Shown here one piece after another: positions 10,554-31,915 of a DNA stretch of 32,000 nt. The position numbers and the translations under genes were made by a program. The first letter of the stretch is position 1. The number at the start of each line of letters is the position of its first letter. The stretch spans positions 555,489 to 587,488 of the forward strand of contig CAXXWR010000003.1 of assembly GCA_963666805.2 (NCBI GenBank), written 5' to 3'. The notes under the pieces are model-generated. The model saw only the letters and a program-made list of their open reading frames with translations. It did not search any database and was not told the origin of the DNA. Source of the DNA: an uncultured Fusibacter sp. GTDB taxonomy: Bacteria; Bacillota; Clostridia; Peptostreptococcales; Acidaminobacteraceae.

Positions 10554-11393
10554 TTATTTAAAATAGGCTATCCCAATGACGCCTTCTCCTGTGTGCGTTC
10601 CCACAACAGAACCCAATTCAATTTTGATAATTTCTTGGATTTGAAAACGTTCTTTTAGAAGTGTTACCAATTGATCTGCTTTAGATTCATCCCCTCCAAA
10701 AGCTACTGCTACGTACTCTATGGCGGTATTACCACAATCCTTGTCTAATTGGTCTAACATCCACTTGCTTCCCTTAGCACTTCCCCTTGCCTTGTAGGCA
10801 ATATTGACACTACCGTCTACGACTTCAATAATCGGTTTTAAATTGAGCATTTTACCAATCATAGCTGCACCGCTGGAAAGTCTGCCACCTTTTTTGAGGT
10901 TTTCAAGAGTATCTAACATGCCATAAAGTTGAGCCCTATCAATCAAATCATTTGCTGTTTGAAGCAATTCATCCATTGACTTACCTTGATCAATCAAGGT
11001 CTGAATTTTGAGAATAATCAGTGCCAAAGAAAAAGAAGTTGTTTTGGAATCAAGTATGAAAATATCATCACTTGCAAGCATATTTTTAGCAATTGATGCT
11101 GATCGAAACGTCCCACTCAATTCACTGGATAAAAAAATCCCAATGACTTGATTGCCGTTTGAAAGTTCCTTTTCAAAATAATCATAGAACTCACCTGGAT
11201 TAACTTGTGATGTCGTTGGCAATTGTTCACTTTCTCTCATTTTCTCATAAAAGGCTTTCGTGCTTATATCTATTTTGTCTACATATTCTTTTTCGCCAAA
11301 TAGTACTTTTAAAGGCAACATACCAATGCCTTTTTGATTTAAAAGATCCAATGATAAATCACATGTACTATCTGTTACTAATTTAATTCCCAT
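10554..11393 (-). CDS. DegV-family fatty-acid-binding protein (FakB-type)
   Basis: N-terminus MGIKLVTDSTCDL is the typical DegV start, and the fold-length ORF fits. The ORF track extends to ATG 11408, 5 codons upstream. I prefer 11393 because the family N-terminus begins there. Neither start has a strong Shine-Dalgarno. Confidence 0.8.
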   Translation of the reverse strand: MGIKLVTDSTCDLSLDLLNQKGIGMLPLKVLFGEKEYVDKIDISTKAFYEKMRESEQLPTTSQVNPGEFYDYFEKELSNGNQVIGIFLSSELSGTFRSASIAKNMLASDDIFILDSKTTSFSLALIILKIQTLIDQGKSMDELLQTANDLIDRAQLYGMLDTLENLKKGGRLSSGAAMIGKMLNLKPIIEVVDGSVNIAYKARGSAKGSKWMLDQLDKDCGNTAIEYVAVAFGGDESKADQLVTLLKERFQIQEIIKIELGSVVGTHTGEGVIGIAYFK

Positions 11394-11411
11394 TATTAGC
11401 CATCTCATTTA

Positions 11412-11432
11412 TTAGTTTGAATTTCAAAGTAT
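11412..11432 (-). promoter_or_regulatory. FabT-box-like operator upstream of degV
   Basis: Minus-strand ATACTTTGAAATTCAAACTAA has an imperfect palindromic core, ACTTTGA-N3-TCAAACT. By my count it is identical at 17 of 21 positions to the perfect palindrome at 12003..12023. It starts 2 nt downstream of a TACAAT -10 element. Confidence 0.5.
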
Positions 11433-11434
11433 TT

Positions 11435-11463
11435 ATTGTAAAAAAAGACCACCTGTTGTTCAA
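11435..11463 (-). promoter_or_regulatory. Candidate sigma-A promoter for degV
   Basis: Minus strand reads TTGAAC (11463..11458), a 17-nt spacer, then TACAAT (11440..11435). Confidence 0.4.
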
Positions 11464-11515
11464 TGGTCTCTTGCTCTATGCATTTATAGTAACTTTTGCT
11501 ATCCTTTGTGCCTAT

Positions 11516-11974
11516 CTACTCATCCAATGTAGGATTGTACTTTTTATCAAAGTATAAGGTTAATTTAGACAGTGTATTAACGAGGACATCCATTTCAGGT
11601 TCTTCTAAACCTTCCATTGTAAAAGTAACCATCTCTTCATGAAAGGCTTGATGATGTTCAAAAGCTCTCTTACCGCTTTCAGTCAGCTCTGCCAATACAA
11701 CTCTTTTGTCTTCTACAGCTTTTTTTCGTGTAACATAGCCTTTCCGAATTAGTGTATTCATCGCTGTTGTCAGCGTTCCCATTGTCACCCCAATGTCTGC
11801 CGATATTTGAGACATATTTTTGGGATTACCAATACCAATCGCCTCAATAACATGCAATTCATTCAAAGTCATATTTTTAAACTCACCACGTCTTAAAGCT
11901 CTTTCTTCAATTGTCAAAATATTGTTAAATAGTACCACCAACAAATTGTTGATGACCTCTCTTTTTTCAGACAT
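11516..11974 (-). CDS. fabT: MarR-family winged-helix regulator, FabT-like (fatty-acid synthesis repressor type)
   Basis: 152 aa. LFNNILTIEERALRRGEFKNMTLNELHVIEAIG, VTMGTLTTAMNTLIRKGYV, EDKRVV and LTESGKRAFEHHQAFHEEMV parallel the motif series I remember for streptococcal FabT. It lies next to a FakB-type gene and has a FabT-box-like palindrome in its own promoter. The symbol is tentative. Confidence 0.6.
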   Translation of the reverse strand: MSEKREVINNLLVVLFNNILTIEERALRRGEFKNMTLNELHVIEAIGIGNPKNMSQISADIGVTMGTLTTAMNTLIRKGYVTRKKAVEDKRVVLAELTESGKRAFEHHQAFHEEMVTFTMEGLEEPEMDVLVNTLSKLTLYFDKKYNPTLDE

Positions 11975-12029: not shown

Positions 12030-12058
12030 ATTATAGACATTTCATCATGACTTGTCAA
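12030..12058 (-). promoter_or_regulatory. Consensus sigma-A promoter of the fabT-like gene
   Basis: Minus strand reads TTGACA (12058..12053), a 17-nt spacer, then TATAAT (12035..12030). The -35 element lies within the last codons of the NhaC-family gene. Confidence 0.65.
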
Positions 12059-13469
12059 GCGTCTGAATGGGTTTAAACTCTGAACCCTTCGTGCTCAATC
12101 TTCCCGTCTTATTCTTAAAAATCACTTGAAAGATAATGATTAAGATGAGGGTTGACCAGTTCAAAATCATATAAGGCGCATAGTCAACCGCCCCTATCCC
12201 TGTAATTGCCAAAATAATAATTGCGTTAACATTCCATGGCATAAGAGGTGAAAAAGCCGTCCCTGAATTTGCAATCACCTGTGCCAAATCAACACTTGAC
12301 TGTCCCTGTTTATTAAAAGGCTTAAGACAGGTCTTGCTCGGAATAACAATGCCTATGGTTTGATCACAAGTTAGAGCATCCAGTCCTATGGAGAGAAGAG
12401 CAGTACGCCTCACAAGTTGTTGAGGCGTCTTCGCACTATGAATCAATTGATTGATTAAAGGGTCAAACCAATTTCTCTTCTCATAGAGACTGCTTAATGC
12501 CATTCCTAACATAATAATCACAATGACCTCCAGCATACCTATCCCCCCACCAATTTCTAGGGTCTTTACAATGCCGCTGGCTTGATCCGCCCTATAGCCC
12601 ACCAACATATACCTTAACACTTGCCATAGTGACTGATGTTGTAAAAAGAGGGTTAAAAACATACCAAGTCCCGTTCCTAAATAAAGTGCTCTTTGACTAT
12701 TGCCACTTCTCACAACTTCAACAAGCACGAGTAAAGGAACTAACATTAAGAGGGGATGGAGAAAAAAATGTTCTCCCAAATCTGTTTTATATTGAACAAT
12801 TTGCGCCACTAACCCTTGCCCACTTACTGCCTGCTTTCCACCTAGTATAAAGCACATAACCAACGTTAATATAAAGGCTGGTAACATGGCTTTCGCGACT
12901 TTTCTAGCATAGTCTTTATAAGCAATTCGGTTGGTTTCACAAGTGAATTGAACCAGTGCTGAAAGCGGAGACAAGCGATCGGCAACATAAGCACCTGAAA
13001 GGATAAAGCCTAACACGAGTGGCCCAGGCAATGTCATGACACTTCCCAGTGTAAAAAGTGCCACTCCAACAGTACTAAGTGTCCCTAGTCCTGTCCCCAT
13101 AAACAATGCCATAAGCGCAGTCATTAAAAAAGTAAACAGGAGGAAATGAACATGTCCTATCACTTCAAAACCATAAAAAATCATAGAAGGTACTACACCC
13201 GAACTAATCCATAAAGCGATATTAAAACCAATTAAAATAATCATTAAATAAATACGTTTAACACTGAAAATCCCTTGAACAATATCATTCACAATAGGGC
13301 GATATGTTTTCTCTTGTAACAATAGTGATCCACAAATAATCACTAAAACCCCTAAAAAACCCAACCACAGAGCATATCCTTTATAAAGGCAAACCATTAA
13401 AGTCAGTGCCAATAAGCCACCATAAATCAAACCTTGATACTTTTTTAATCCTTCCCCCATCGTTTTCAC
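12045..13469 (-). CDS. NhaC-family Na+/H+ antiporter-like transporter
   Basis: 474-aa polytopic ORF. SGAYVADRLSPLS resembles the conserved NhaC S-G-A-Y-x-G-D-K-x-S-P-L-S segment. GTG start at 13469 lies 4 nt after AGGAGG. The in-frame ATG 3 codons downstream is an alternative start. Confidence 0.7.
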   Translation of the reverse strand: MKTMGEGLKKYQGLIYGGLLALTLMVCLYKGYALWLGFLGVLVIICGSLLLQEKTYRPIVNDIVQGIFSVKRIYLMIILIGFNIALWISSGVVPSMIFYGFEVIGHVHFLLFTFLMTALMALFMGTGLGTLSTVGVALFTLGSVMTLPGPLVLGFILSGAYVADRLSPLSALVQFTCETNRIAYKDYARKVAKAMLPAFILTLVMCFILGGKQAVSGQGLVAQIVQYKTDLGEHFFLHPLLMLVPLLVLVEVVRSGNSQRALYLGTGLGMFLTLFLQHQSLWQVLRYMLVGYRADQASGIVKTLEIGGGIGMLEVIVIIMLGMALSSLYEKRNWFDPLINQLIHSAKTPQQLVRRTALLSIGLDALTCDQTIGIVIPSKTCLKPFNKQGQSSVDLAQVIANSGTAFSPLMPWNVNAIIILAITGIGAVDYAPYMILNWSTLILIIIFQVIFKNKTGRLSTKGSEFKPIQTLDKS

Positions 13470-13566
13470 ACGTCCTCCTACTTCTTCATAAAAGCCTTTA
13501 TCTCATTATAATTTTAGCATATTCTTTATTCATTAAGAGTAAATTTCAAAAAAATACGGAAAACAC

Positions 13567-13597
13567 TTGACTCTTTATTAAAATATGTTAATATAAT
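13567..13597 (+). promoter_or_regulatory. Candidate sigma-A promoter of the his operon leader
   Basis: TTGACT (13567..13572) pairs either with TATAAT (13592..13597, 19-nt spacer) or with the overlapping TAATAT (13589..13594, 16-nt spacer). Spacing is non-ideal in either case. Confidence 0.4.
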
Positions 13598-13622
13598 GAA
13601 TAAATACTAATTGCGAGGCAAA

Positions 13623-13697
13623 ATGATGAATAAAAATACACAATCAAATTTAAATGGAAAACTTCATCATCATCATAGATCAGGGTTTTATCTCTAA
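13623..13697 (+). CDS. his operon leader peptide (24 codons, four consecutive His codons)
   Basis: GAGG (13615..13618) is followed by ATGATG. The ORF translates to MMNKNTQSNLNGKLHHHHRSGFYL, with CAT x4 at 13665..13676 and stop TAA at 13695..13697. It lies directly upstream of a terminator and of hisZ. Confidence 0.65.
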   Translation: MMNKNTQSNLNGKLHHHHRSGFYL

Positions 13698-13782
13698 ATG
13701 AAAACGTTATTTTCATTATAGATATAAGCCCTATTAATCGTTAGCGAATAGGGCCTCGTATCTATGATGAACTCGAAATATT

Positions 13783-13823
13783 AAGAGTCATATAGGACAG
13801 TGTCCTATATGACTCTTTTTTTA
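13783..13823 (+). terminator. Attenuator terminator of the his leader
   Basis: AAGAGTCATATAGGAC (13783..13798), a 3-nt loop, then GTCCTATATGACTCTT (13802..13817) form a perfect 16-bp stem followed by a T-run. It sits 40 nt upstream of the hisZ start. Confidence 0.8.
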
Positions 13824-13864
13824 TACCCATTTAAACGCCGACTGGCGTGAAGAAAGGAACACAC

Positions 13865-15076
13865 ATGAGACCTAAAAGAATAAACACCCTTAAAACCTTG
13901 CAAAATCAATCACTTATGATTTCAAAACTCATTAGACTTTATCAGTCCCATGGCTTCCGCGAAATGGACATCCCCGTCCATCTCAAGGCCTCTAATCAAA
14001 CCACTGCTTTAGATACTGTGAGATTTGTTGATTCAGAAAAAGGCATTGTCAAGCTCCAAGATGATCCCACCCAATCTATCTTAGAATTGCTAGAATCTGA
14101 ATCATTAAACTGTCCGCTTAAAATCTGTTATGAAGCTAAAACATTTAAATATCTCGACAAACAAATTGATGAAATGACACAAGTTGGAATTGAATCTTAC
14201 GGCGAATCAGGACCCTCTGTAGATGCAGAAACTGTTGCCATGGCAATAAAATCACTCCTCATTTTTGACAGCCAAATTCTCGTAGAAATCAGTGAAATCA
14301 CCTTTTATAAGGCCATCATGAACCTGATTCAAATGGAAAGTCATCAGCCCTTAATTGAAAAAATCATTCAAAGTAAAAACAAAGTCAGACTGGAAAAATT
14401 GGATTGTATTTCAGATGAATTGAAAAAGACCCTCATGGCTTTTATTGACTGCAACGGTTCAATCGAACAAGTTCTTCCTAAAGTAAAAGACCTAAGTCAA
14501 ATGCCACTTGTTATAGGGAATGACAACTTACAACATGCAGTCACTTACTTAGAAAATATCACTCAATTAATTCAAGCCTACAACTTATCCAGTCAACTTA
14601 GAATAGACATCACCTTAAAACCAGATTTTGATTATTATACAGGCATTATCTTCAAAGGCTATACTCAAAAATATCCTGAACCCATCTGTACAGGCGGTCG
14701 CTATGACCGAGGCGTTATTGAAGCATTACCCGCAATTGGTTTTGCTATCAAAGTTAACTATTTACTAACCATAATGGAGGAAAATAAAATGTACGAAAAC
14801 GGAACGATTTGTATCTATGAAAAAAGTATCACTCAAAAAAGTATCAAGCTAGCTGAAGTTTACCGCGAAAAAGGCTATGACGTCGATATTCAAAAATATG
14901 ATTCAGAAAAATATGCAATTGATAGTGCCACAACAAGAGCCGTTGAAACCGTTGTCATCATCGACCAAGATGTGGCTAAACTGATTAATCTAAGAACCGA
15001 AAAAATAGAGAAATACCCGCTTGGGCAAGTAACCGCTAACCCTAGCCTTTTACTCTCCAACGAAAGTATTCACTAA
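13865..15076 (+). CDS. hisZ: ATP phosphoribosyltransferase regulatory subunit HisZ (HisRS paralogue)
   Basis: Class-II HisRS-like motifs are present (DFDYYTGIIFKGY, TGGRYD), but the motif-2 region is degenerate (KTFKYLDKQIDEMTQVGIE). It lies directly upstream of a short-form hisG. Start set at ATG 13865 (AAAGGA 7 nt upstream). The ORF track begins at a GTG 6 codons earlier. Confidence 0.8.
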   Translation: MRPKRINTLKTLQNQSLMISKLIRLYQSHGFREMDIPVHLKASNQTTALDTVRFVDSEKGIVKLQDDPTQSILELLESESLNCPLKICYEAKTFKYLDKQIDEMTQVGIESYGESGPSVDAETVAMAIKSLLIFDSQILVEISEITFYKAIMNLIQMESHQPLIEKIIQSKNKVRLEKLDCISDELKKTLMAFIDCNGSIEQVLPKVKDLSQMPLVIGNDNLQHAVTYLENITQLIQAYNLSSQLRIDITLKPDFDYYTGIIFKGYTQKYPEPICTGGRYDRGVIEALPAIGFAIKVNYLLTIMEENKMYENGTICIYEKSITQKSIKLAEVYREKGYDVDIQKYDSEKYAIDSATTRAVETVVIIDQDVAKLINLRTEKIEKYPLGQVTANPSLLLSNESIH

Positions 15077-15108
15077 TCAAGATAAGAAAGAACAAGAAAG
15101 GACAATCC

Positions 15109-15729
15109 ATGCCTAATCAACCTACAGCCAACTCATTAACGCTCGCACTTGCTAAAGGTCGCATTTCAGAAGAATTTTTCAAGGCCTATTCTGAAAATGT
15201 AAAAGCCATTAAAATTGAATCGCGAAAACTCATTTACATCATTGATAATCTCACTCTTATTTTAGTCAAACCCGTCGATGTTCCCACTTATGTCACAAGC
15301 GGTATAGCCGACATCGGCATCGTTGGACGAGATGTGGTTATGGAATCAGGACATACTTTTTTTGAACTGAATGAACTGAACTTTTCAAAATGTAAAATGT
15401 CAATCGCTGGTTTTGATCAAGAAGGACCTCTCCCAGAGAGAATGACCATTGCCACCAAGTACCCACGTATTTGTAAACAGTTTTTTCCTAAATCAGAAAC
15501 CATCTATCTCAACGGATCAGTCGAGCTTGCACCGCTTATGAATTTATCCGATGTCATCTTTGACATTGTGGAAACAGGTGCAACCCTCAAAGAAAATGGA
15601 CTCACCGTCTTAAAAGATGTGATTGATATTAACCCTATCCTCATTGCAAACGAAACCTCTTATAAATTTAATCAAACCGCCATAGAATCTATTAATAACG
15701 TACTCACACAAGGAGGCCTCAATGTATAA
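15109..15729 (+). CDS. hisG: ATP phosphoribosyltransferase, short form (HisG-S)
   Basis: 206 aa with LTLALAKGR, GIADIGIVGRDV and IVETGATLKENGL. The short length is consistent with dependence on HisZ. Confidence 0.9.
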   Translation: MPNQPTANSLTLALAKGRISEEFFKAYSENVKAIKIESRKLIYIIDNLTLILVKPVDVPTYVTSGIADIGIVGRDVVMESGHTFFELNELNFSKCKMSIAGFDQEGPLPERMTIATKYPRICKQFFPKSETIYLNGSVELAPLMNLSDVIFDIVETGATLKENGLTVLKDVIDINPILIANETSYKFNQTAIESINNVLTQGGLNV

Positions 15730-16756
15730 GGCAGAACAAAATAAAGATATCCGCATTCGTCTCAATGCAAATGAACTCAATATTCCATTTGATCAAGAAT
15801 GGTTAGATGAAATGAAAGCCGCTATCACTTTTGATGACATCAACCGTTATCCTGAAACCAATTCAGATGGGCTCTTAGCTGTCGCTTCAGACAAATTCAA
15901 AGTGCCAGCCTATCAGATCGTAGCAGGGAATGGTTCCGATGAACTCCTCGACATTGTCTACAAAGCTTTTACGTCTCCCGGCGACAAAGTGCTCGCTTTT
16001 ACCCCTAGTTTTGTTATGTATGAAATCATTAGCGATATCTACCAAACCGATTTCAAAACCTTTAATGTCATGGACTCTACCACCATTGATGTCGACGCCC
16101 TTATTGACGTTATGAAAAAAGAAAAACCGCAACTCACTTTCATTTGCAACCCCAATAATCCAACTGGTCAATTACTCAGTCACACCTCTATTGAAAGAAT
16201 TATTCAAACTGGCATTGGCACCATTGTTATTGATGAAGCCTATGGTGAGTTTATCGGTCCTGATTTTATGGCTTACAGTGCCATTGACTTAATTGATAAG
16301 TATGACAATGTCATCGTCTTAAAGACCCTTTCAAAAGCATACGGCCTTGCTGGCTTACGGGTTGGTTTTTCACTTTCAGGTGAATCTGCAAGCCAACAAT
16401 TACTCGCCAATAAGTACCCTTACAACCTCAACCAATACTCACAGCAATTTGCAATGGCACTCTTAAATGAAAAATATACTGATAAAGTCATGAAACGCGT
16501 TGAATTAACGCTCATCCAACGTGAACGCACCCTAGCCGCCTTAAATGCAATTGAGGGCATTACCCCTTCGCCTTCTGCAGGTAATTTTATCTGGTTTTAT
16601 ACAGAATATCCCGAACTTAAAAATGCCCTCCTCGATCAAGGTATCCTCATTCGTGCTTTCGATCATCTCAAAGGCTACTACCGCGTGACAATTGGTACAG
16701 AAGCTGAAATGTCTATTTTTATAGACGTTATCACCCAACTGTTTAAGGAGGTTTAA
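15722..16756 (+). CDS. hisC: Histidinol-phosphate aminotransferase
   Basis: 344-aa class-II aminotransferase with LNANELN, GNGSDELLD, NPNNPTG, DEAYGEF, the TLSKAYGLAGLRVG PLP-Lys motif, and IRAF...YYRVTIG. Overlaps the hisG stop. Confidence 0.9.
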   Translation: MYKAEQNKDIRIRLNANELNIPFDQEWLDEMKAAITFDDINRYPETNSDGLLAVASDKFKVPAYQIVAGNGSDELLDIVYKAFTSPGDKVLAFTPSFVMYEIISDIYQTDFKTFNVMDSTTIDVDALIDVMKKEKPQLTFICNPNNPTGQLLSHTSIERIIQTGIGTIVIDEAYGEFIGPDFMAYSAIDLIDKYDNVIVLKTLSKAYGLAGLRVGFSLSGESASQQLLANKYPYNLNQYSQQFAMALLNEKYTDKVMKRVELTLIQRERTLAALNAIEGITPSPSAGNFIWFYTEYPELKNALLDQGILIRAFDHLKGYYRVTIGTEAEMSIFIDVITQLFKEV

Positions 16757-16757
16757 A

Positions 16758-17327
16758 ATGCGTACGTCTACTCTATTGAGAGAAACCAACGAAACTCAAG
16801 TTATCGTTACCTTGGATTTAGATCAAACTGTGGGATCTGATATTCGCACTTCTATCCCTTTTTTTAATCACATGCTAGAGCAATTGGGCAAACACAGTGG
16901 TTTTGCCCTTACTGTTAAAGCTTCAGGTGATGACGTCCACCACATCGTTGAGGATGTGGGCATTACCTTAGGTGAAGCTTTTTTAGAAGCTATTGGCGAC
17001 AAAAAAGGCATCGAACGTTATGCTTCTATGATGGTCCCTATGGATGAATCCCTTATCAATGGTGCGATTGATATTTCAGGTCGACCTTATCTTAACTTCA
17101 ACTGTCAATTGCCATCACCTATGACCAGTGGATTTGAGTCTGAACTCGTTAAAGAATTTCTCTTGGCCTTCGTAACACACGCTAAAATCACCCTACACAT
17201 GATTCAAATTCAGGGCGATAATACTCACCATATTATTGAGAATGTCTTTAAACTCTTAGCTAGACTCTTAAAAACGTCTGCTGCTATCACCGGTAAATCT
17301 CTCCCCTCTACGAAAGGAGTCTTGTAA
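16758..17327 (+). CDS. hisB: Imidazoleglycerol-phosphate dehydratase (monofunctional)
   Basis: 189 aa with RETNETQV, FFNHMLEQLGKHSGF, DDVHHIVEDVGI, GDNTHHIIE and LPSTKGVL. Confidence 0.9.
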   Translation: MRTSTLLRETNETQVIVTLDLDQTVGSDIRTSIPFFNHMLEQLGKHSGFALTVKASGDDVHHIVEDVGITLGEAFLEAIGDKKGIERYASMMVPMDESLINGAIDISGRPYLNFNCQLPSPMTSGFESELVKEFLLAFVTHAKITLHMIQIQGDNTHHIIENVFKLLARLLKTSAAITGKSLPSTKGVL

Positions 17328-17942
17328 ATGATTGTTATTGTTAATTATGATATTGGCAACGTCTTTAATGTTCAAAACGCCCTCAATCATATGGGTTATC
17401 CTTGCCTTTTGTCCTCTGATCCAGATGTTATCTTAAAGGCTGATGCCATTATACTTCCCGGCGTAGGTGCCTTTAGAGACGCTATCCAATCCCTTGAAGA
17501 CAAAAAGCTCATATCAGTCTTAAAAGAAGCCGTCACTAAAAAGATTCCCCTGCTTGGCATTTGTCTTGGAATGCAATTGCTTTATGAAAAGAGTTTTGAA
17601 AATGGTGAATATGAAGGTTTGGGATTCCTAAAAGGTGACATTGTCAAATTTGATGAAAGCAGAGTGTCCCAAATCCCTCAAATGGGCTGGAACAACCTTG
17701 AATCTGTAAATGATTCTCCCTTTAGTCAGTCAGAAGGTGACGTTTACTTCGTTCATTCTTACTATGCTCAAGGAAATACAAGTCAAATCTTATCGGTTGT
17801 CAATTATGAAGGTGTTAAAGTCCCAGCCATTGTAGGTGAATTTCCTGTCTATGGTATGCAATTTCACCCTGAAAAAAGTGGAAAAGAAGGACTTAAAATA
17901 CTCAAAGCTTTTTTAAACATCGTGCCCACTTATATCAGATAG
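17328..17942 (+). CDS. hisH: Imidazole glycerol phosphate synthase, glutaminase subunit
   Basis: 204-aa class-I amidotransferase with LPGVGAF, GICLGMQLL (catalytic Cys), VHSYY and QFHPEKSG. Confidence 0.9.
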   Translation: MIVIVNYDIGNVFNVQNALNHMGYPCLLSSDPDVILKADAIILPGVGAFRDAIQSLEDKKLISVLKEAVTKKIPLLGICLGMQLLYEKSFENGEYEGLGFLKGDIVKFDESRVSQIPQMGWNNLESVNDSPFSQSEGDVYFVHSYYAQGNTSQILSVVNYEGVKVPAIVGEFPVYGMQFHPEKSGKEGLKILKAFLNIVPTYIR

Positions 17943-18010
17943 GTTCAATTAAATCCTAGTCATTCAGAAATGAGTAACTAGATAAATCAATAAGATTAGG
18001 AGTGTCATAT

Positions 18011-18724
18011 ATGATTATTTACCCCGCAATAGATTTATTAGATGGCAAGTGTGTTCGCCTGCAAAAAGGCGATTTTAAAAAGTCTACCACCTACTATGAA
18101 GACCCTTTAGACGCCGCTCGCTTTTGGAAAAAGAGTGGTTCCGACTACCTACACATTGTTGATTTAAACGGTTCAAAAGACGGCATTTTCTATCATCTTG
18201 ATCTCGTCAAATCAATCATTGAAGAAACAGGTCTCTCCATCCAATTTGGAGGTGGTATTCGTTCTAAAGAACAAGTCGATCAACTGATTCAAATTGGTGT
18301 TGATCGACTTGTTATTGGCTCACTCGCTGTAAAAAATGTTGACCTCTTTCAAAGAATACTTGAAGATTATGGTGATAAAATCGTATGTGCTATTGATGCT
18401 AAAAATGGCTATGTCGCAACTGACGGCTGGACAAGTGCCAGTCAGCTAAGCTATATAGACTTTGCCAAAGCACTTGAACGTATGGGGTGTACCCAAGTAC
18501 TTTACACCGATATTGAACGTGACGGCATGCTCACCGGTCCTGACCTAAAAGGTTATGAACACCTCAAAAAAGAAACCTCTTTAAACATTGTTGCTTCGGG
18601 TGGAATTGCCACTCTTGAAGATGTTAATCAACTCAAATCGCTTGATGTCTACGCGACCATTATTGGCAAAGCTTTCTATGAAAAGCGGTTTAGCTTAGAA
18701 CAAGTTCTCACTTTAATCCAATAG
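18011..18724 (+). CDS. hisA: ProFAR isomerase
   Basis: [31 protein letters not shown] and [11 protein letters not shown]. Start set at ATG 18011 (AGGAG 9 nt upstream). The ORF track begins at GTG 18002. Confidence 0.9.
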
Positions 18725-18771
18725 GTGTTCATCCTCCTATGTCTATCAAAAGCAAAAGAAAGGAATTGACT

Positions 18772-20145
18772 ATGATTAAAAAACGTATTATCCCATGTCT
18801 TGATATCGCTGATGGCAAAGTCGTCAAAGGGATTAACTTTCAAAATATAAAGACCATCGCTGACCCTGTAGAGATGGCAACCTTTTATTCTAAAACTGGG
18901 GCAGATGAGCTGGTCTTTTATGATATAACTGCTTCTTATGAAGAAAGAGGAACATTTGTCGATATGGTTAAAGCAGTGGCACAGAGTGTCTTTATTCCCC
19001 TTACAGTTGGCGGTGGTGTCCGCTCGGTTGCTGATTTTGACTTACTTTTAAAATCAGGTGCCGATAAAATCTCAATCAATAGTTCAGCTATTAAAAACCC
19101 CGACCTCATACAAGAAGCCAGCCAACGTTTTGGTTCTCAGTGTGTCGTTCTCTCCATGGATGTCAAACGGGTTAATGGTGTCTATAAAGTTTTCGCCAAG
19201 GGCGGTCGTGAAGAAACAGACCTTGAAGCCGTCGCTTGGGCACAACAAGGCGTCTCACTTGGTGCCGGTGAATTGGTCATCAATTCTATTGATACCGACG
19301 GGGTTAAAGGTGGCTTTGATATCGACCTATTAAATGCTATTTCAGAAGTGGTATCAGTACCTATTATCGCTTCTGGCGGTGCAGGTTCTATGTCAGATTT
19401 CAAAAAACTCTTTGAAACCACTACTATAGATGCAGGGCTAGCCGCTTCTATCTTTCACACGCAGCAAGTGATGATTCAAGACTTAAAACTCTACCTCGCT
19501 AAAAATAAAATTCCTGTTCGCTTTGGATTTATAGGTGATCAGCTCATACCTGCCGTCGTTCAATCTGCAAAAAGTAAAAAGGTCCTCATGCTTGCCTATA
19601 TGAACGAAACAGCACTCCAAAAATCTATGACAATTGGGGAAACTGTCTTTTACTCTCGCTCAAGACAATGCTTATGGCACAAGGGAGAAACTTCTGGTAA
19701 TACTCAAAAAATCGTTGATATTCAATTTGATTGTGATCAAGACACCTTACTTGTCAAGGTTGAAGAAGCAGGCCCTGCCTGTCACACAGGAAGTGAAACC
19801 TGTTTTGATCGCTATGAGGATTATAAGAACTATGAAGACTATGAAGACTATAAAGACTACGAAGCAGATTCTCCCCTTCTCAAACGACTCTATGATATCG
19901 TTATGGACCGTAAACTCAACCCCACCGAAGGCAGTTATACCAATTATCTCTTTGAAAAGGGCGTTGATAAAATTCTGAAAAAAGTGGGAGAAGAAACAGC
20001 CGAAGTTATCATTGGTGCTAAAAATACCAACGAAGAATTAATCTATGAAACAGCCGATCTCTTTTACCATGTCATGGTGCTCCTCGTCAACCAAGGCGTT
20101 ACTTATGAATCAATCGCAGAAGAACTCAAAAAAAGAGAAAAGTAA
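18772..20145 (+). CDS. hisF/hisIE: Single ORF fusing HisF (IGP synthase cyclase), HisI (PR-AMP cyclohydrolase) and HisE (PR-ATP pyrophosphohydrolase)
   Basis: HisF part: [44 protein letters not shown] and ASGGAGS, ending about nt 19521. HisI part: [42 protein letters not shown] and [12 protein letters not shown]. HisE part: [20 protein letters not shown] and [11 protein letters not shown] saw no in-frame stop anywhere along the ORF. Start set at ATG 18772 (AAAGGAA Shine-Dalgarno). Confidence 0.85.
19813..19866 (+). repeat. Six tandem in-frame copies of a 9-nt unit (TAT-GAR/AAR-GAY type) encoding the (Y-E/K-D/N)6 linker between HisI and HisE
   Basis: TATGAGGAT TATAAGAAC TATGAAGAC TATGAAGAC TATAAAGAC TACGAAGCA translates to [18 protein letters not shown]. 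Confidence 0.85.
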
Positions 20146-26004: not shown

Positions 26005-27552
26005 ATTTCAATACATCTAATGTTAAGGTTCAACTAATTTAGGAACTATCAATGGCTTAGTATTTATTGAATTTCAATACATCTAATGTTAAGGTTCAAC
26101 TTCAGCGTGTCATTTTCATCCCAAAAGAATTTCTTTATTTCAATACATCAAGTGTTAAGGTTCAACCAAAAAGAAATACCGTCTTAGAAGTAAGATTAAT
26201 GGATTTCAATACATCAAATGTTAAGGTTCAACTATTTTTTTTATGTAGTAAGCGGATTCCTTTGCTTTATTTCAATACATCAAATGTTAAGGTTCAACGG
26301 ATTAAACCCAATGGTGGACAGAAAGACCATCGAAATTTCAATACATCAAATGTTAAGGTTCAACTCTGCTTTAGAGCTTTAATATACTCTAACTCTGTTA
26401 ATTTCAATACATCTAATGTTAAGGTTCAACAGAGCTGACTGAATACTTTAAATCGTTGCCAGAGTTATTTCAATACATCTAATGTTAAGGTTCAACGTTG
26501 CTATTTTCAACTGGTTTTGATGTCACTTCATTATTTCAATACATCTAATGTTAAGGTTCAACTAATTTGATAGCACAGCAAAAGGGTGTCAATGCGACAT
26601 TTCAATACATCTAATGTTAAGGTTCAACAATGTTCACGACACAGGGCAATGTAGCCTTAATGAAATTTCAATACATCTAATGTTAAGGTTCAACCTGCAC
26701 ATGCAGAAAAAGAACTAAATCAAAAAGATCAATTTCAATACATCTAATGTTAAGGTTCAACTTGGTTCCCAATTGTGGCAGCACACAGAAAAGCAGAATT
26801 TCAATACATCTAATGTTAAGGTTCAACATGTATATTGACGTGCAAATTCCCACCAACTATTGCATTTCAATACATCTAATGTTAAGGTTCAACTGGTGGA
26901 GTAAGCGAAGATATTGCACAAGCTATTTTATTTCAATACATCTAATGTTAAGGTTCAACTTGATTATAAATCTGTTTACCTTCGCTAACTGATATATTTC
27001 AATACATCTAATGTTAAGGTTCAACTTTTCTGATTCAACATTTTCTTGACAAGAAAAACGAATTTCAATACATCTAATGTTAAGGTTCAACTAATTAGAC
27101 CACACAATATTGGGAAGAACATTATACATTTCAATACATCTAATGTTAAGGTTCAACACAGATTTAATAGAATCATCGAGTTTACGAATAATTATTTCAA
27201 TACATCTAATGTTAAGGTTCAACAAAGTGGGTTGCCAGTGATCACACCAACTACATCAGATTTCAATACATCTAATGTTAAGGTTCAACCACGAAGGAGG
27301 ACAAGAAAACATGGACTTAAAACAATTTCAATACATCTAATGTTAAGGTTCAACTTATTGTCAGCAGGGAAAAACGTCATTTTGTAATATATTTCAATAC
27401 ATCTAATGTTAAGGTTCAACTTATCTAGCATATTTGAATTGGATTATACCAATTTCATTTCAATACATCTAATGTTAAGGTTCAACTTTTGAAAAAGCAA
27501 TTAAACAGCAAGTGAGTATTGAATTTCAATACATCTAATGTTAAGGTTCAAC
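26005..27552 (-). CRISPR. CRISPR array with 24 repeats of 30 nt and 23 spacers (21 of 36 nt, one of 37, one of 35)
   Basis: The plus-strand repeat is ATTTCAATACATCTAATGTTAAGGTTCAAC. Repeat starts are 26005, 26071, 26137, 26203, 26269, 26335, 26401, 26467, 26533, 26599, 26665, 26732, 26798, 26864, 26930, 26996, 27062, 27128, 27194, 27260, 27325, 27391, 27457 and 27523. The minus-strand form GTTGAACCTTAACATTAGATGTATTGAAAT ends in ATTGAAAT, the usual type I-B 5'-handle end. The leader lies next to cas2, so transcription is inferred on the minus strand. Confidence 0.97.
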
Positions 27553-27657: not shown

Positions 27658-27948
27658 TCATATAAAAAATTCTTCTTCGCCTTTTAATTCTTTAGTTCCT
27701 AGTATCTCTTCTTCAAAATAATGTTGACTCAAAAGTTTTATAATCACAACATCATCTTTCTTTTTATTGATGACTTTTAACAATTCAGCTTTTAAAGAAA
27801 TGATTTGTGAAGGTGTAATTCGCCCCCTAAATACAGAGAGTTGATAATGCGTAAGGTACTTTTTACAAACTTTAAAAACTTTTTGACATCGCTTTTCTTC
27901 AACATCATAAAATACAAAAACATAGTTGTAATTATATTTTTTAGGCAT
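27658..27948 (-). CDS. cas2: CRISPR-associated endoribonuclease Cas2
   Basis: 96 aa. YVFVFYDV....KR...V.K.C..Y is the typical Cas2 N-terminal ferredoxin-fold start. 1-nt overlap with the cas1 stop (TAATG). Adjacent to the array. Confidence 0.9.
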   Translation of the reverse strand: MPKKYNYNYVFVFYDVEEKRCQKVFKVCKKYLTHYQLSVFRGRITPSQIISLKAELLKVINKKKDDVVIIKLLSQHYFEEEILGTKELKGEEEFFI

Positions 27949-28937
27949 TACATTTTCTCCTTTTCACTAAAAGGCATAAACGGCTTATCTTCAATAAAAT
28001 GCTTAATCAGCTTATAACCCTCAAATTTAATCGCAGTTTCATAACTAACAGGTCTATTTAAAGATTGATGCTTGAAAGTGGAACTGAGTTTCTTTTCAAG
28101 TTCAACAATAAATTTTTTACGCCCTTCTTCATTCAGATAGCAATAATTAAGATTTTTATCAAAATGTTCAATCACCGTAATCATTCGTTTATTGATCATT
28201 GTCACTATGACTGGGAATACAATAATCAATTTAAAAACTTCAGCAACATCTAAAGAAAGTGAAAATCGGCCTTCACTGGGTTCATGTAAAAAGCTAATAC
28301 CTTGATCCACATGAGTGTGGTACAATTGCGAAATTACTTTTGAATATAACCATGAATTTCCAAAAGAAATCATCGCATTTAGTGGATTATCCGGTGGTCG
28401 TTTAACACGTTTATTAGATATGAAAGATTCATCAATAATTTGATTAAGCGTTTTATAAAAATACTGCCACAATTCGCCTTCAGCTGCTAAAAGTCTTTTG
28501 ATATCTTCTTGCTCTACATCTACTGACCGAATCAAATGACATGCTTCATTGATTATATCTGAATCTTTATATTTTTTGCTCTTCAAGTAATAAATCATAT
28601 TTTCTTGAATCGCTGATACAAATGGAACAGCAAGTGACATTCTCTCTTGACTGTAGGCTAGTGCTTGTTTAACTGTAACTTTTCCACTCAAATATTTATC
28701 CTTTGGATAATAAGACCCACTATAGTAACCATAATAGTTAAAGAAATGAACACATATCCCTTGATGTGATAAAAAATCAAGTAACTTAGTATTTATAGTC
28801 ACTTCATTCATCATATAAAGTTCTTTAATCCCTTCTATCGGCATATGAACTAACCCTTTTTCAGACCTAAATGTCAAAGAATTATCTTTACGATGTAATT
28901 CACCCATTGAAAAAATATAGCGTGTTGCACCTTTCAT
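27948..28937 (-). CDS. cas1: CRISPR-associated endonuclease Cas1
   Basis: 329 aa of Cas1-type sequence (EGELWQYFY, RPPDNPLNAMISFGNSWLY, HEPSEGRFSLSLDVAEVFK). Position is between cas4 and cas2. Confidence 0.9.
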   Translation of the reverse strand: MKGATRYIFSMGELHRKDNSLTFRSEKGLVHMPIEGIKELYMMNEVTINTKLLDFLSHQGICVHFFNYYGYYSGSYYPKDKYLSGKVTVKQALAYSQERMSLAVPFVSAIQENMIYYLKSKKYKDSDIINEACHLIRSVDVEQEDIKRLLAAEGELWQYFYKTLNQIIDESFISNKRVKRPPDNPLNAMISFGNSWLYSKVISQLYHTHVDQGISFLHEPSEGRFSLSLDVAEVFKLIIVFPVIVTMINKRMITVIEHFDKNLNYCYLNEEGRKKFIVELEKKLSSTFKHQSLNRPVSYETAIKFEGYKLIKHFIEDKPFMPFSEKEKM

Positions 28938-28946
28938 TAAACCCTC

Positions 28947-29438
28947 CTAAATATAACAATAATCAAAATAAGCACATTTCTTACACCTGTTTGTTTTGAT
29001 AGGTTCTGGCGGAACATTTTGTTCAAGCAATATCTGAATACTTTCTACTACCTTTTCAAGTTCAACTTCTATTTCATTTGTTAGTTCAAGTTCTAATCGT
29101 TTCTCTGTTTTTGTTTTATTTTCAAAAAAGATGAGTTTCCCTTTTTTTTCAATACCTTTTGCTTTCAAAACAGATAGGTACAAATAGACTTGCCATTTAC
29201 AGGCTTTGAGATCACTATTTGATTTCTTATATTCAATTAAATAGTCGCCTTGAATTTTATCTATTTTTATTTGTTCAATTGCTACCTCAGAATATTGAGT
29301 CTTTCTCTTAGTTTCATGAAGTGCTTTTCCAATTTTCACGTTTTCACTATTATCCTCTAAATTGATGCGATTCCCAGCCAAATAGCATTGCCTTTTACAA
29401 TGAAAATAATAATTAATCAGTGTGCCGGTCACTTTCAA
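28947..29438 (-). CDS. cas4: CRISPR-associated exonuclease Cas4 (RecB-like, Fe-S)
   Basis: 163 aa with an N-terminal Cys (YFHCKRQCYL), the nuclease core D-x-E-x-K region (GDYLIEYKK), and the C-terminal CKKCAYFDYC cluster. The TTG start at 29438 has GAGGAG 8 nt upstream and overlaps the cas3 stop. Confidence 0.9.
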   Translation of the reverse strand: MKVTGTLINYYFHCKRQCYLAGNRINLEDNSENVKIGKALHETKRKTQYSEVAIEQIKIDKIQGDYLIEYKKSNSDLKACKWQVYLYLSVLKAKGIEKKGKLIFFENKTKTEKRLELELTNEIEVELEKVVESIQILLEQNVPPEPIKTNRCKKCAYFDYCYI

Positions 29439-31915
29439 ATCATCAACTCCTCAACATTTAAAACGCCCATTCCATTCGTTTCATTATAGGCCTTTCGATC
29501 AAATTTACCATCAACTATATAAGCATCTGACTCCAATAGATAGACTCTCTCACCAATTGATTCGCGATACATTAAAGGAAGATAACGCACATTATAAGTA
29601 AAATATGAAAATGTCTTATTGATTTGAGATAACTTAATTTGTTTTTCAGGATAAGATAATTCTGTGTTATTCAATAATTCATTATATTGATTCCAAACTT
29701 CTTTTCCATCAATACTTACCTTCTCAACATTTATAACTGTTGGAATAAAAATTGTAATATCGTCATTATCAATTAATCTTAAATATTTTCTTGTCTCATC
29801 AAACTTCAAATCCTTTACCAATTTATAGAACTGTTCAATATTATGTTTATTAAAACGACTTTTTTCATTATTTAAAACCTTTAAAATTTGCTCAAAATAG
29901 GCTTTGAAATTTTTATCCTTATAGACATCTCTTATAAAGGGATTTCTAAGTGAAAATTGAGTTCTCACATCATCTTTATAAATAACCTTTTCATTAAATA
30001 GATTAAAAAAATAGATGCGCGCATTTTCACGTTTACATGATCGATTGATCCGTCCCGCAAACTGTTCTTCATTGTCTAAAATAGAAATGTCTTTATAGCC
30101 TTTGTTCATATCTATATCAACGCCTGCTTCTATAACCTGCGTTGCAACTACTATAACGTCTTGTAATAAATAACGCCCCTTTTCATCAACTTGTTTTAAA
30201 CGCTGTATGACGTCTTCTCTAAAATAGCTTGGATCATCTCCCGTTAACTCTAAAACTTGATAATTTGAATGGGTTAGTTTTGATTTTAATTGCAGATAAA
30301 ATGCTCTCGCATTGACTTTATCAATAAATTCAATCAAAATACGTGGTTCTTGATTTTCAACATCCTTCACTAAAATTTCTACAAGGTCATCTAATTCAAT
30401 CTTATTTTCAAGCAAAGTAAAATCTGGCACTGTCCTATCTTTAAAAATAGGATGATTGTAATAGTCTTGAGGACTCTTGATTAACATCGTTGCTCTTTCA
30501 TCAATAAGTTCACTCATTTTAGGCAAAGTCGCAGACATAATAATAAATTTTATATTATAGTGTTTTGCGTAAAGGTGTATTATTTCAATGAGCTCTTTCC
30601 AAATCATGTTTTTATAGCTTTGTATTTCATCAATAATCACGATACTGTTTGCCATATGTGAAAGCATCAAATGTGATTCTCTTGACGTCCCTATTAAAGC
30701 ATCAAAGAAACGGACATGACTCATCAACAAAATGGGAAAATGTATCATAATATGGTCAAGATACATCTTTTGATAATCTTCATCTTTTATCGTTTTGATA
30801 GGCTCAATGCTATTAATGAGACCTATATCCTTACTATCAAACAATTCATTTAGAACATTGGCTGTTTGTTCTATTAATGTATTGAATGGAAAGACATAAA
30901 AAATCCGCTTAATATTAGTTGCTTTTTCTATTGCTTTAACTGCAAGATTAATGGATGTTCTAGTTTTTCCAGAACCTGTAGGAGCTTCTAGGTAAAAAAC
31001 AGAATCATTTATATTCTCAATAAAATGCTTAGATGCTTCTTGTGACATTTTTGTTCTTAAATCGTTTATTTCTAAATTATTGTGTAATTTTATCTCTTTC
31101 AAACTATTTTTGACAATTTCATCATCATAGTATTTTTTGGTGAAGCTTGATATATCTTCAATTTCTCCAAAATAACTTGTTCCTTTTCCACTCATATAGT
31201 GTCCTGTTGCATAAAAATCACAAGTGACAATGTGACTAAAAAGGGTCTTGAGGAGTAGCCAAAAAATCAGCGGCTGATTATTATCTTGATGAGCAATACT
31301 TTCTTTTCCTTTAATCATTGTCCTTTTTAGTTTATTCAACATCACTTCAGACTGATTCTTAAGCAATTCAATCAAGCTATATTCTTCTAAAAATACAGAA
31401 TCATCTACAATATCATAGATTCCCGTCTCAAGTGACGTTAAGAAATCACCTATATCTTTTAAATAGCCATGATGTTTAGAAATCATATAGGCATACCCTA
31501 TACATATCTTTCTAAGCTCTGTTTTGAGTTTTCTATCTAGCCGACACTCTTCTTCAAAAATATGTAGATATATAATGGCTGAATAAATACTATGTTGTGT
31601 TCGTTCAGTACACTTGTTGCCGAATAAAGTGTTTTTCATTTTGCTAATCTGAAAATTTCGGTTAACTTTCCCTATATCATGAAGATATATGGCTTTTTCG
31701 TACCATAGAATGCCTTCTTGTATGAGTATCGGATTTCCTCTAAAATAATCTCTTAAAAGGTTATCAACACAGTTATTATTTTTTGTCAATTTCAAGTAGT
31801 AATCATAAACAAGATCAGAATGTTCTCTAAGCGTTTCCTTCTCTAACTTTCCATTACCTTTTAAATGGGCATAGTATGTATAATTGTTTTTAAGATAATT
31901 ATTTATAGACTTCAT
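29435..31915 (-). CDS. cas3: Cas3 HD-nuclease/helicase fusion
   Basis: 826 aa. The N-terminal HD domain has LREHS, YLHDIGK and SKHHGY. The SF2 helicase motifs are APTGSGKT, IIDEIQ, SATLP, ATQVIEAGVDID and QFAGRINR. Confidence 0.9.
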   Translation of the reverse strand: MKSINNYLKNNYTYYAHLKGNGKLEKETLREHSDLVYDYYLKLTKNNNCVDNLLRDYFRGNPILIQEGILWYEKAIYLHDIGKVNRNFQISKMKNTLFGNKCTERTQHSIYSAIIYLHIFEEECRLDRKLKTELRKICIGYAYMISKHHGYLKDIGDFLTSLETGIYDIVDDSVFLEEYSLIELLKNQSEVMLNKLKRTMIKGKESIAHQDNNQPLIFWLLLKTLFSHIVTCDFYATGHYMSGKGTSYFGEIEDISSFTKKYYDDEIVKNSLKEIKLHNNLEINDLRTKMSQEASKHFIENINDSVFYLEAPTGSGKTRTSINLAVKAIEKATNIKRIFYVFPFNTLIEQTANVLNELFDSKDIGLINSIEPIKTIKDEDYQKMYLDHIMIHFPILLMSHVRFFDALIGTSRESHLMLSHMANSIVIIDEIQSYKNMIWKELIEIIHLYAKHYNIKFIIMSATLPKMSELIDERATMLIKSPQDYYNHPIFKDRTVPDFTLLENKIELDDLVEILVKDVENQEPRILIEFIDKVNARAFYLQLKSKLTHSNYQVLELTGDDPSYFREDVIQRLKQVDEKGRYLLQDVIVVATQVIEAGVDIDMNKGYKDISILDNEEQFAGRINRSCKRENARIYFFNLFNEKVIYKDDVRTQFSLRNPFIRDVYKDKNFKAYFEQILKVLNNEKSRFNKHNIEQFYKLVKDLKFDETRKYLRLIDNDDITIFIPTVINVEKVSIDGKEVWNQYNELLNNTELSYPEKQIKLSQINKTFSYFTYNVRYLPLMYRESIGERVYLLESDAYIVDGKFDRKAYNETNGMGVLNVEELMI

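Follow-up and report, generated by a model that had tools for sequence, protein, structure and literature searches.

What kind of element lies between the predicted promoter of a histidine biosynthesis operon and its first gene, hisZ, and how it might control the genes that follow, is the question raised by a 32,000-nucleotide stretch of DNA (hereafter the window; GC content ~36%) from an uncultured Fusibacter sp. (Clostridia; Eubacteriales; Fusibacteraceae; GenBank assembly GCA_963666805.2, contig CAXXWR010000003.1, positions 555,489 to 587,488 of the forward strand). An initial annotation, made from the sequence alone, had proposed that a hisZG-type operon is preceded here by a histidine attenuator that works by ribosome stalling rather than as a T-box, and this proposal is supported by the position of the element, its conservation, compensating base changes, and published relatives. 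In our assessment, the element likely controls the hisZGCBHA-F/IE operon by ribosome-mediated transcription attenuation in response to histidine. Since the same device was predicted earlier in related clostridia, it is a fresh example of an attenuator already described there, and not a new mechanism.

The GAGG Shine-Dalgarno (SD) sequence and the 24-codon open reading frame (ORF) with its four CAT codons were found exactly where the initial annotation had placed them, to which we add that the SD spacing is better for the second ATG (13626) (the coordinates of all features are collected in Table 1). Within the window, this is the only run of four CAY codons (0.11 expected; at least one run in 7 of 100 shuffles), and the element to which it belongs shares the strand of the operon, with 42 nt between it and hisZ. 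Promoter scanning detected no separate hisZ promoter. The terminator follows the leader promoter and precedes hisZ, all in the same orientation, and it ends no gene further upstream. The start region of the ORF, AUGAUGAA (13623-13630), is perfectly complementary to UUCAUCAU (13663-13670, the Leu-His-His codons) and is paired with it in the minimum free energy (MFE) fold, and such a pairing could occlude the start codon. Seen in the window only, with the homologous ORFs beginning ATGTAT or ATGAAT, this pairing is window-specific and not conserved, and was therefore dropped from the model.

From the His codons onwards, the leader is built of six segments, with 'sense' ones (A, C, and E) taking turns with 'antisense' ones (B, D, and F). 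Here, A consists of the His codons followed by AGAUCAGGG, B contains the ORF-end sequence GGGUUUUAUCUCUAAAUGAAAA, C duplicates A as a decoy, and the 5' arm of the terminator, E, reads CAUAUAGG. A repeat search returned TCATCATAGAT (13670-13680) as 100% complementary over 11 nt to ATCTATGATGA (13760-13770), which is the perfect long-range helix that the initial annotation had described, together with GCCCTATT/AATAGGGC (13728-13735/13747-13754), the arms of a small hairpin (13697-13704/13710-13717) and the terminator arms as 17-nt repeats (13783-13799/13801-13817). The same search also revealed two features absent from that annotation, namely that 13700-13723 is a 79% direct copy of 13657-13680 and that 13712-13731 pairs with 13752-13771. 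The MFE structure of 13600-13830 (-65.5 kcal/mol, z=-7.57, with 0 of 200 shuffles as stable) is precisely the nested arrangement foreseen plus the terminator, and includes both of the enclosed hairpins (13688-13727 and 13728-13735/13747-13754); with the terminator excluded (13660-13778), the z-score is -5.27 and again none of 200 shuffles folds as well. A terminator scan bore out the perfect 16-bp terminator and T-run that had been assigned to 13783-13817. As for the antiterminator, given earlier as about 12 bp between 13760-13774 and 13785-13796, the alternative pairing with two single-nucleotide bulges is indeed there, but it comprises 11 bp, at 13762-13774/13785-13795.

To gauge these pairings, duplex energies were calculated for each of eight Fusibacter-type leaders (the window and the seven homologs introduced below) and compared with those of shuffled partners. 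In the window, the A:D duplex has an energy of -14.8 kcal/mol against -5.7 for the shuffles (p<=0.017 in all eight leaders), B:C has -15.5 against -4.3 (p<=0.003, again in all eight), C:D has -15.9 against -4.4 (p<0.05 in seven of the eight), and D:E has -9.3 against -4.7 (p=0.027 in the window, and p<0.05 in seven of the eight), while E:F is significant throughout (8/8). As conserved pairings, A:B and B:E were rejected, both being no better than shuffles, although B:E does appear in the MFE structure of the window. The pairings of A, D, E, and F in the initial scheme were thus present as described, but its four-segment layout omitted the decoy C, which also pairs with D. Given that C is a copy of A and shares with it the strand D, the architecture is of the six-segment Salmonella-his type and not of the four-segment trp type.

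Relatives of the locus had to be sought through another gene of the operon. The window HisZ has a best protein-database identity of 30%, too remote for synteny, and a HisZ search of genome contigs gave only an unrelated alphaproteobacterial locus. With HisZ matches at no more than 30% identity, the conserved HisF-IE fusion was used instead, and this retrieved one relative at 98% identity and then others at 60-68%, in clusters that include Fusibacter sp. 3D3, F. ferrireducens, and F. paucivorans, all three of which have the homologous leader. The exact HisF-IE sequence of the window, when looked up, proved not to be on record. The contig of the 98% relative (L002) begins inside hisZ, so that it offers no leader for comparison, and in a high-GC relative (L014) a His leader was not visible. 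Seven additional hisZ upstream regions were obtained (L003, with L004 and L006; L008; L007; L011; L025; L009; and L023), and each has a TTGACA / ~17 nt / TAnnAT promoter, a GAGG SD sequence, an ORF of 21-25 codons, and, after it, the blocks known from the window. The mini-ORF and the His run, whose conservation the initial annotation had named as a check, are kept in seven further loci, as are the pairing segments and the terminator. Segments B to F and the T-run are retained in all eight Fusibacter-type loci, with the terminator core GAGTCATATAGG..CCTATATGRCTC and T-run being invariant in each of them.

The homologous leader peptides are MYNTVFSLSQLHHHHRSGFIFKSA (L003), MYKYSFSITQLHHHHHRSGFIFKKA (L008), MNIYTILSSQFHHHHRSGIYHPMK (L007), MNNYTFLSSQFHHHHRSGIYHPMN (L011), MNNYTFSSSQFHHHHRSGIYHPMN (L025), MNIYPIYLLQLHSHHRSGVYH (L009), and MKVLQILSSQFHHHHRSGICH (L023). 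Common to them is the core (L/F)HHHHRSG, the C-terminal end reading HHHHRSG(F/I/V)(Y/I), and the N-terminal half to two thirds is unconserved. The His codons vary synonymously between CAT and CAC, the hairpin loops also drift, and in the hairpin Hb a GCCC/GGGC core is invariant with variable inner pairs. More conspicuously, the leader alignments have a mean column identity of 68-72% with long invariant blocks, against 32-38% identity for the adjacent HisZ proteins, and the leader is under much stronger purifying selection than the neighbouring hisZ. Moreover, the nucleotide conservation extends beyond the stop codon and tracks the pairing partners, not the codon positions. As far as the sequences tell, this pattern is the signature of a structured RNA that needs translation across the His run.

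Covariation was also looked for in the helices, and compensating changes are indeed found. In L007 and L011, AGAU has become AGGU in both A and C, matched by AUCU to ACCU in D (i.e., AGAT to AGGT and ATCT to ACCT in the DNA), and E ends in AGGU. C is altered by G-U wobbles only in L009 and L025, and in L023 the B:C pairing is kept via a U-A to G-U change. RNAalifold, applied to the C-to-F part, gave a consensus of C:D, Hb, and E:F with 33 pairs, 6 of them with double changes. Taken together, these suggest coordinated changes across about four independent lineages, short of statistical proof. Column covariation counts on the MAFFT alignments are unreliable, with register shifts (the L007/L011 bulges and the Hb loop) and few true double changes, and we therefore relied on the duplex energies of each sequence.

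According to the mechanism that we propose, the RNA would start ~25 nt before the 24-codon ORF. When charged His-tRNA is plentiful, the ribosome would reach the stop codon at 13695 and cover B, such that C:D forms and the E:F terminator ends the RNA near 13822. An untranslated leader would also terminate, with A:D enclosing B:C and Hb. When charged His-tRNA is scarce, a ribosome stalled on 13665-13676 would mask A and leave B free to take C; with B:C formed, D (or B itself) would hold E before F is made, no terminator would arise, and transcription would read through into hisZ. The outcome would be a matter of parity: a free B provides two antisense segments for C and E, and with B covered, D would go to C and leave E for F. 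In this scheme, we infer where transcription starts, that the ORF is translated, that ribosomes stall on the His codons, in what order the segments pair over time, and that the leader responds to histidine.

Folding with a ribosome mask of 27 nt, placed on the His codons, on the stop codon, or nowhere, is largely consistent with this scheme. For RNAs ending just before F, the MFE structure with masked His codons is B:C plus D:E in five of six leaders, whereas masking the stop codon gives C:D and leaving the RNA unmasked gives A:D. We also calculated the mean probability that the core of E is paired upstream, omitting the RNA 5' of the ribosome, for stalled versus stop positions. The stalled and stop values are 0.64-0.71 and 0.20 in the window, 0.88-0.90 and 0.16 in L023, 0.74-0.81 and 0.38 in L009, 0.71-0.87 and 0.45 in L008, and 0.87-0.89 and 0.67 in L003. 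By computation, therefore, the outcome differs between the two positions (E sequestered versus free) in the window and in four of the seven homologs, and covering the His codons with a ribosome, as the initial annotation had suggested, favours sequestration of the terminator 5' arm in five of the eight leaders. In folds computed for the window RNA at increasing lengths, B:C forms first (-8.5 at 13731, and -20.0 with Hb at 13757), and B, once freed by C:D, then pairs with E.

Several points weigh against this interpretation. The L007, L011, and L025 leaders, which form one clade, show no stalled-versus-stop shift at equilibrium. In the window, C:D plus Hb (-27.0) is more stable than B:C plus Hb (-20.0) after D emerges, and as equilibrium favours the former, antitermination would need kinetic trapping or help from B:E. 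The MFE states depend in part on the SD region pairing with D, and differ when the 5' part is omitted. In L009, the His run is interrupted (HSHH). Covariation is thin (10 sequences from about four lineages, with most pairs invariant), and the structures accordingly rest mainly on conserved complementarity. Finally, in the literature we found no functional tests of Firmicute his attenuators, this lineage included.

Among other explanations, the one that survives best is a four-segment attenuator of the trp type, in which A:D, the D:E antiterminator, and E:F do the work, B:C and Hb are passive spacers, and C:D is irrelevant. Of the conserved helices that span a long range, A:D (11+3 bp) is the strongest, and it lies in the MFE structure and is significant in all eight leaders; D:E and E:F are conserved, and a stalled ribosome does mask A. 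What makes this explanation improbable is the decoy itself, since C is a 79% copy of A, and C:D is as stable as A:D (-15.9 versus -14.8), is kept in 7/8 leaders with changes that match those in A, and is a helix of the RNAalifold consensus. With A masked, C would then be taken up by D, and even a stalled ribosome would leave the terminator intact, unless B sequestered C. Moreover, the stop codon lies 60 nt from D, too far for a terminating ribosome to cover D in the manner of E. coli trpL.

Very improbable, in our judgment, is a ligand- or protein-binding leader (riboswitch-like, a relative of the trpB motif, or a T-box) in which the His mini-ORF is incidental. The initial annotation had found no T-box-like sequence, and this holds for the Rfam search as well: RF00230 (T-box) matched neither at gathering threshold in the window nor at E<=10 in 13450-13900, the homologous loci gave no T-box match either, RF00514 (His_leader) likewise gave nothing at gathering in the window or at E<=10 in 13450-13900, and no other RNA class reaches its threshold at the leader in the scan of the window. 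There is a sub-threshold match of 13715-13824 to RF04312, the trpB motif (40.9 bits versus a gathering threshold of 59; E=2e-4 in a 451-nt search), and this motif, too, is a hairpin followed by a terminator, with the antiterminator in the right shoulder of P1 (PMC11109978), and the C-Hb-D hairpin is well conserved. However, that score remains below gathering, trpB reaches gathering in no homologous locus, and no trpB match at E<=0.1 is listed for five sister leaders (L008, L009, L023, L025, and L011). A covariance model (CM) built from ten His leaders finds its training loci only, with no more copies in the window or the loci, and misses both the trpB-like locus L016 and the leader L012 (see below for both). 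From the sub-threshold score and this negative reciprocal search, we take the resemblance to be one of design and not of membership. Furthermore, the SD, start codon, and His run are kept in 8/8 loci with synonymous CAT/CAC exchange, the run recurs in the unrelated L012 leader, and the conserved hairpin sequence is itself an antisense or decoy of the His-Arg codons.

It is scarcely plausible that the product is a functional small His-rich peptide, or that the ~220-nt terminated RNA is a trans-acting small RNA (sRNA) whose transcript end is the terminator. The peptide does have the conserved C-terminal core HHHHRSG(F/I/V)(Y/I), attenuator-derived trans-acting sRNAs are known (rnTrpL in Sinorhizobium), and in C. 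difficile, where the hisZ transcription start site is mapped, an infection-induced RNA is annotated as '5'UTR hisZ'. Yet the nucleotide conservation runs well past the stop codon along the pairing partners, and the peptide is unconserved over its N-terminal two thirds. The conserved codons that follow the His run are the very nucleotides of the A:D and B:C helices, and the element invariably sits just in front of hisZ in the same orientation, no promoter of its own having been detected for hisZ. We give hardly any weight to real hairpins with regulation that is not specific for histidine (a pause or terminator that is constitutive or senses general translation, or control by a HisR-type repressor), for which it speaks that the link to histidine rests on the sequence of the element, that HisR is the commonest his regulator in Clostridia, and that 32 kb of genome leave room for a hisR gene elsewhere, since four tandem His codons fall exactly on segment A in all homologs, the window contains no HisR-box core (TTTA-N6-TAAA), and published attenuator-bearing relatives lack HisR (PMC9413887).

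Table 1. Leader elements, his operon, and adjacent transporter gene in the window
Feature	Position	Strand	Details
Sigma-70-type promoter	-35, 13567-13572; -10, 13589-13594	+	Predicted by promoter scan; -35 TTGACT, 16-nt spacer with TG extension, -10 TAATAT
Shine-Dalgarno of leader ORF	13615-13618	+	GAGG; 4 nt before ATG 13623, 7 nt before ATG 13626; aligned and kept in all homologs
Leader mini-ORF	13623-13697	+	MMNKNTQSNLNGKLHHHHRSGFYL; 24 codons (23 from 13626); stop TAA 13695-13697
His run	13665-13676	+	CATCATCATCAT; CAT x4; proposed stalling site
Segment A, sense copy 1	13665-13685	+	His codons and AGA TCA GGG; partner D (13670-13680/13760-13770 and 13683-13685/13755-13757)
Segment B, antisense copy 1	13683-13704	+	GGGTTTTATCTCTAAATGAAAA; last ORF codons, stop, and 7 nt further; partner C
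Segment C, sense copy 2	13709-13731	+	ATTTTCATTATAGATATAAGCCC; decoy of A; partners B or D
Hairpin Hb	13728-13754	+	GCCCTATT ... AATAGGGC; arms 13728-13735/13747-13754; nested within A:D and within C:D
Segment D, antisense copy 2	13755-13774	+	CCTCGTATCTATGATGAACTC; mutually exclusive partners A, C, and E
Intrinsic terminator	13783-13822	+	E, 5' arm 13783-13798; F, 3' arm 13802-13817; 16 bp, 3-nt loop; T-run 13816-13822
hisZ	13865-15076	+	NCBIfam
hisG, short form	15109-15729	+	NCBIfam
hisC	15722-16756	+	NCBIfam
hisB	16758-17327	+	NCBIfam
hisH	17328-17942	+	NCBIfam
hisA	18002-18724	+	NCBIfam
hisF-hisIE, fused	18739-20145	+	NCBIfam; single 468-aa HisF-HisI-HisE fusion
NhaC-family (PF03553) transporter	12045-13469	-	Divergent from the leader promoter; adjoins the his operon

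The gene order hisZ-G-C-B-H-A-F/IE is identical in all Fusibacter-type loci, and no hisD is found in the his operon of the window (13865-20145). The NhaC-family gene next to the operon has counterparts near the his operon in L007 (1330-2700, minus strand), L009 (1187-2560, minus), L011 (700-2070, minus), and L025 (205-1575, minus), and a second copy lies right behind hisF-IE, in the orientation of the operon, in L007 (9423-10763, plus) and L025 (8257-9630, plus). To this family (PF03553) presumably belongs YuiF as well. The gene beside the his operon may encode a histidine transporter, because 'histidine permease YuiF' is a common member of his regulons (Ashniev et al., 2022; PMC9413887). No copy of the attenuator was detected before the NhaC-family gene using the CM of the His leaders.

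Other observations on the surroundings are of separate interest. A FabT-like MarR regulator (NF050133, 134 bits, below cutoff) and a DegV/FakB-type fatty-acid-binding protein are encoded at 10554-11974 on the minus strand, and most relatives have this MarR/FakB pair in synteny with their his locus. Farther downstream, there is a CRISPR array (26005-27552, plus strand) with 30-nt repeats, a ~66-nt period, and 20 matches to Rfam RF01316 (CRISPR-DR3), beside which cas genes are located on the minus strand (27948-31915), these being cas1 (27948-28937), cas4 (28947-29438), and a cas3-like helicase (29435-31915), from which we assign the system to type I. In L009, an S-adenosylmethionine riboswitch match (12114-12203, minus strand; 42.5 bits versus 44.4, cut off at the end of the locus) stands upstream of genes for homoserine O-succinyltransferase and Cys/Met metabolism on the flank of the his operon, and it appears ordinary.

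A different His leader was encountered in L012 (1908-2090; a Logan contig from ERR10775737 with 52% HisF-IE identity), where the ORF MNLNRSICISATFKHHHHL precedes a hisD-hisZ-hisG... operon and is followed by two tandem terminators (CCACCATTTGATGC..GCATCAGATGGTGG-T7 and AGCTGCTATCT..AGATAGCAGCT-T6). Missed by the Fusibacter-type CM, this leader looks, by its sequence layout, like an independent invention of the same principle.

The trpB motif (RF04312) is an orphan described as a strong riboswitch candidate in Firmicutes and Fusobacteria, for which its authors 'cannot rule out' a classic attenuator (Narunsky et al., 2024; PMC11109978). Like the window element, its hairpin has a right shoulder that can pair with the 5' arm of the next intrinsic terminator, and there is a partial sequence likeness (A.AGAUA..../..UAUCU.U) as well as amino-acid-related genes downstream; unlike the window element, it is not associated with his genes. 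A metagenome scan for the trpB-motif consensus returned eight loci, of which only L016 was relevant, and the rest were rejected as high-GC chance hairpins. In L016 (209-442; metagenome ERZ791897, NODE-39), which scores 52.7 bits to trpB versus the 59 required, a TTGACA/TATAAT promoter and an SD sequence precede a 17-codon ORF, MSNSKINELNIRWQSQY (272-325, including its stop), with one Trp codon, an ATP-binding cassette (ABC) substrate-binding protein is encoded downstream, and the AGCCAG just 3' of the Trp codon finds its complement, CUGGCU, in the right shoulder of P1. This predicted arrangement is consistent with the 'classic attenuator' option of the trpB-motif authors.

A further Rfam family, RF02863 ('Enterococcus sRNA 2410'), was matched in L027 (1120-1348; E. 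gallinarum plasmid NZ_CP116511.1) with 89.5 bits against a threshold of 61, and in L029 (124-384; S. suis plasmid NZ_CP135066.1) with 36 bits. Both matches lie in the 5' leader of ABC transporter operons, with transporters homologous to that of L016, so that L016, L027, and L029 all stand upstream of homologous ABC substrate-binding proteins. The 5' strand of the RF02863 outer helix coincides with the end of SD-preceded ORFs, MKLLLSPQLNIAYFSYFR in L027 (ending ..AYFSYFR before the stop) and MLQMCQNHSANHTYFYGYFR in L029 (ending ..TYFYGYFR before the stop), and these loci share with the window a layout in which the ORF end pairs over a long range around two hairpins, with more hairpins and a terminator thereafter. 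In L027 and L029, RF02863 looks like a putative Tyr/Phe leader-peptide attenuator, and not an sRNA. Across a sample of two or three loci, this suggests that the RF02863 and RF04312 entries are aromatic-amino-acid leader-peptide attenuators, and, if confirmed, the reassignment of two Rfam families would matter more than the window element. Beyond that, we put forward tentatively, and with more doubt than belief, a broad and largely unrecognised attenuator design in Firmicutes, in which the 3' end of the ORF (regulatory codons and an AGAU-like tail) would pair distally around two hairpins with an internal decoy as the parity counter, and of which the window element would be one instance and RF02863 and RF04312 Tyr/Phe- and Trp-responsive members.

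The closest known systems are the candidate His leader-peptide attenuators of clostridia. That of C. difficile was reportedly first noted by Vitreschak and co-workers in 2004. For Firmicutes lacking HisR and His T-boxes, such candidates have been predicted in three lineages, namely the B. cereus group, five Eubacteriales (C. difficile, Intestinibacter, Terrisporobacter, Acetoanaerobium, and Lutispora), and six Erysipelotrichales (Ashniev et al., 2022; PMC9413887), in a dataset that does not include Fusibacter, and a His leader peptide before Bacillus hisZ was reported earlier still (Naville and Gautheret, 2010; PMC2965389). The initial annotation had therefore rated the novelty of the element too highly, though its statement that, for low-GC Gram-positives, His attenuation has comparative predictions and no experiments behind it agrees with the literature that we found. 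Leader-peptide attenuation in general has been demonstrated experimentally in Firmicutes, for instance in the S. aureus ilv-leu operon.

With the Peptostreptococcaceae/Lutispora type, the window shares the hisZGCBHAFIE operon without hisD and with the F/IE arrangement (T. glycolicus has its hisD elsewhere; PMC9413887), and an SD-preceded mini-ORF in which 3-5 His codons are followed by AGA U. In fact, the T. glycolicus blocks CATCATCATAGATCC..GGG, TCATAGATACAAGCCCTATT, GGGCTTGTAGCTATGATGG, and CCTATAGG..CCTATATGG plus T-run align column for column with the window, and the blocks of Additional file 6B (PMC9413887), CATCATCATAGATC.., TCATAGATACAAGCCCTATT, GGGCTTGTAGCTATGATGG, and CCTATAGG..CCTATATGG-Tn, match it block by block. 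The published attenuator hairpin after the stop codon (..CATAGRTACAAGCCCTRTT .. GGGSTTGTAGCTATGATGG) corresponds to TTATAGATATAAGCCCTATT .. AGGGCCTCGTATCTATGATGA in the window, which aligns with T. glycolicus and L. thermophila, and is equivalent to our C:D plus Hb. The terminator, U-run, and alternative antiterminator are likewise present, the 3'-arm core CCTATATGG being common to the published sequences. Where the window differs is in its lineage, Fusibacteraceae, and in a terminator stem that is longer and perfect (16 bp). Judged from these alignments, there is clear homology between the window element and the attenuators predicted in Terrisporobacter, Lutispora, C. difficile, and Intestinibacter. 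In its accessible passages, PMC9413887 names the leader, attenuator hairpin, terminator, and 'potential antiterminator', and does not spell out the long-range A:D, the decoy C, or the role of B. Our analysis extends this predicted class to Fusibacteraceae and related uncultured lineages and provides an explicit six-segment layout with a decoy, absent from Rfam, that could seed a CM for annotation. Its practical value would be better annotation, and the element is a good choice should classical His attenuation be tested experimentally in a Gram-positive for the first time.

More distant are the B. cereus-group hisZ/hisS* and the Erysipelotrichales attenuators, which are also comparative predictions with a short His-run ORF, attenuator and terminator hairpins, and a hisZ-first operon, but are described as independently acquired with no reported sequence similarity, and have hisD in their operons. 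The His T-box leaders (RF00230; the Lactococcus lactis his operon and Peptostreptococcaceae hisXYZ transporters) share the tRNA-His signal, the antiterminator/terminator output, and the phylum, yet a T-box senses the tRNA by direct RNA-RNA contact and needs no translation, unlike the device predicted for the window.

In the enterobacterial his leader (hisL, RF00514), segments A to F pair as A:B, C:D, and E:F for termination, and as B:C and D:E for read-through. The window element would resemble it in stalling on tandem His codons and in terminating both with full translation and with none, and it has the same six alternating complementary segments whose parity decides on the terminator. It differs in lacking any similarity to it in sequence or by CM, in having four His codons and not seven, in preceding a Gram-positive operon with hisZ and short hisG, and in that the untranslated A pairs with D around a nested B:C, with A:B not being significant. 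In concept, then, the Fusibacter leader repeats the enterobacterial logic.

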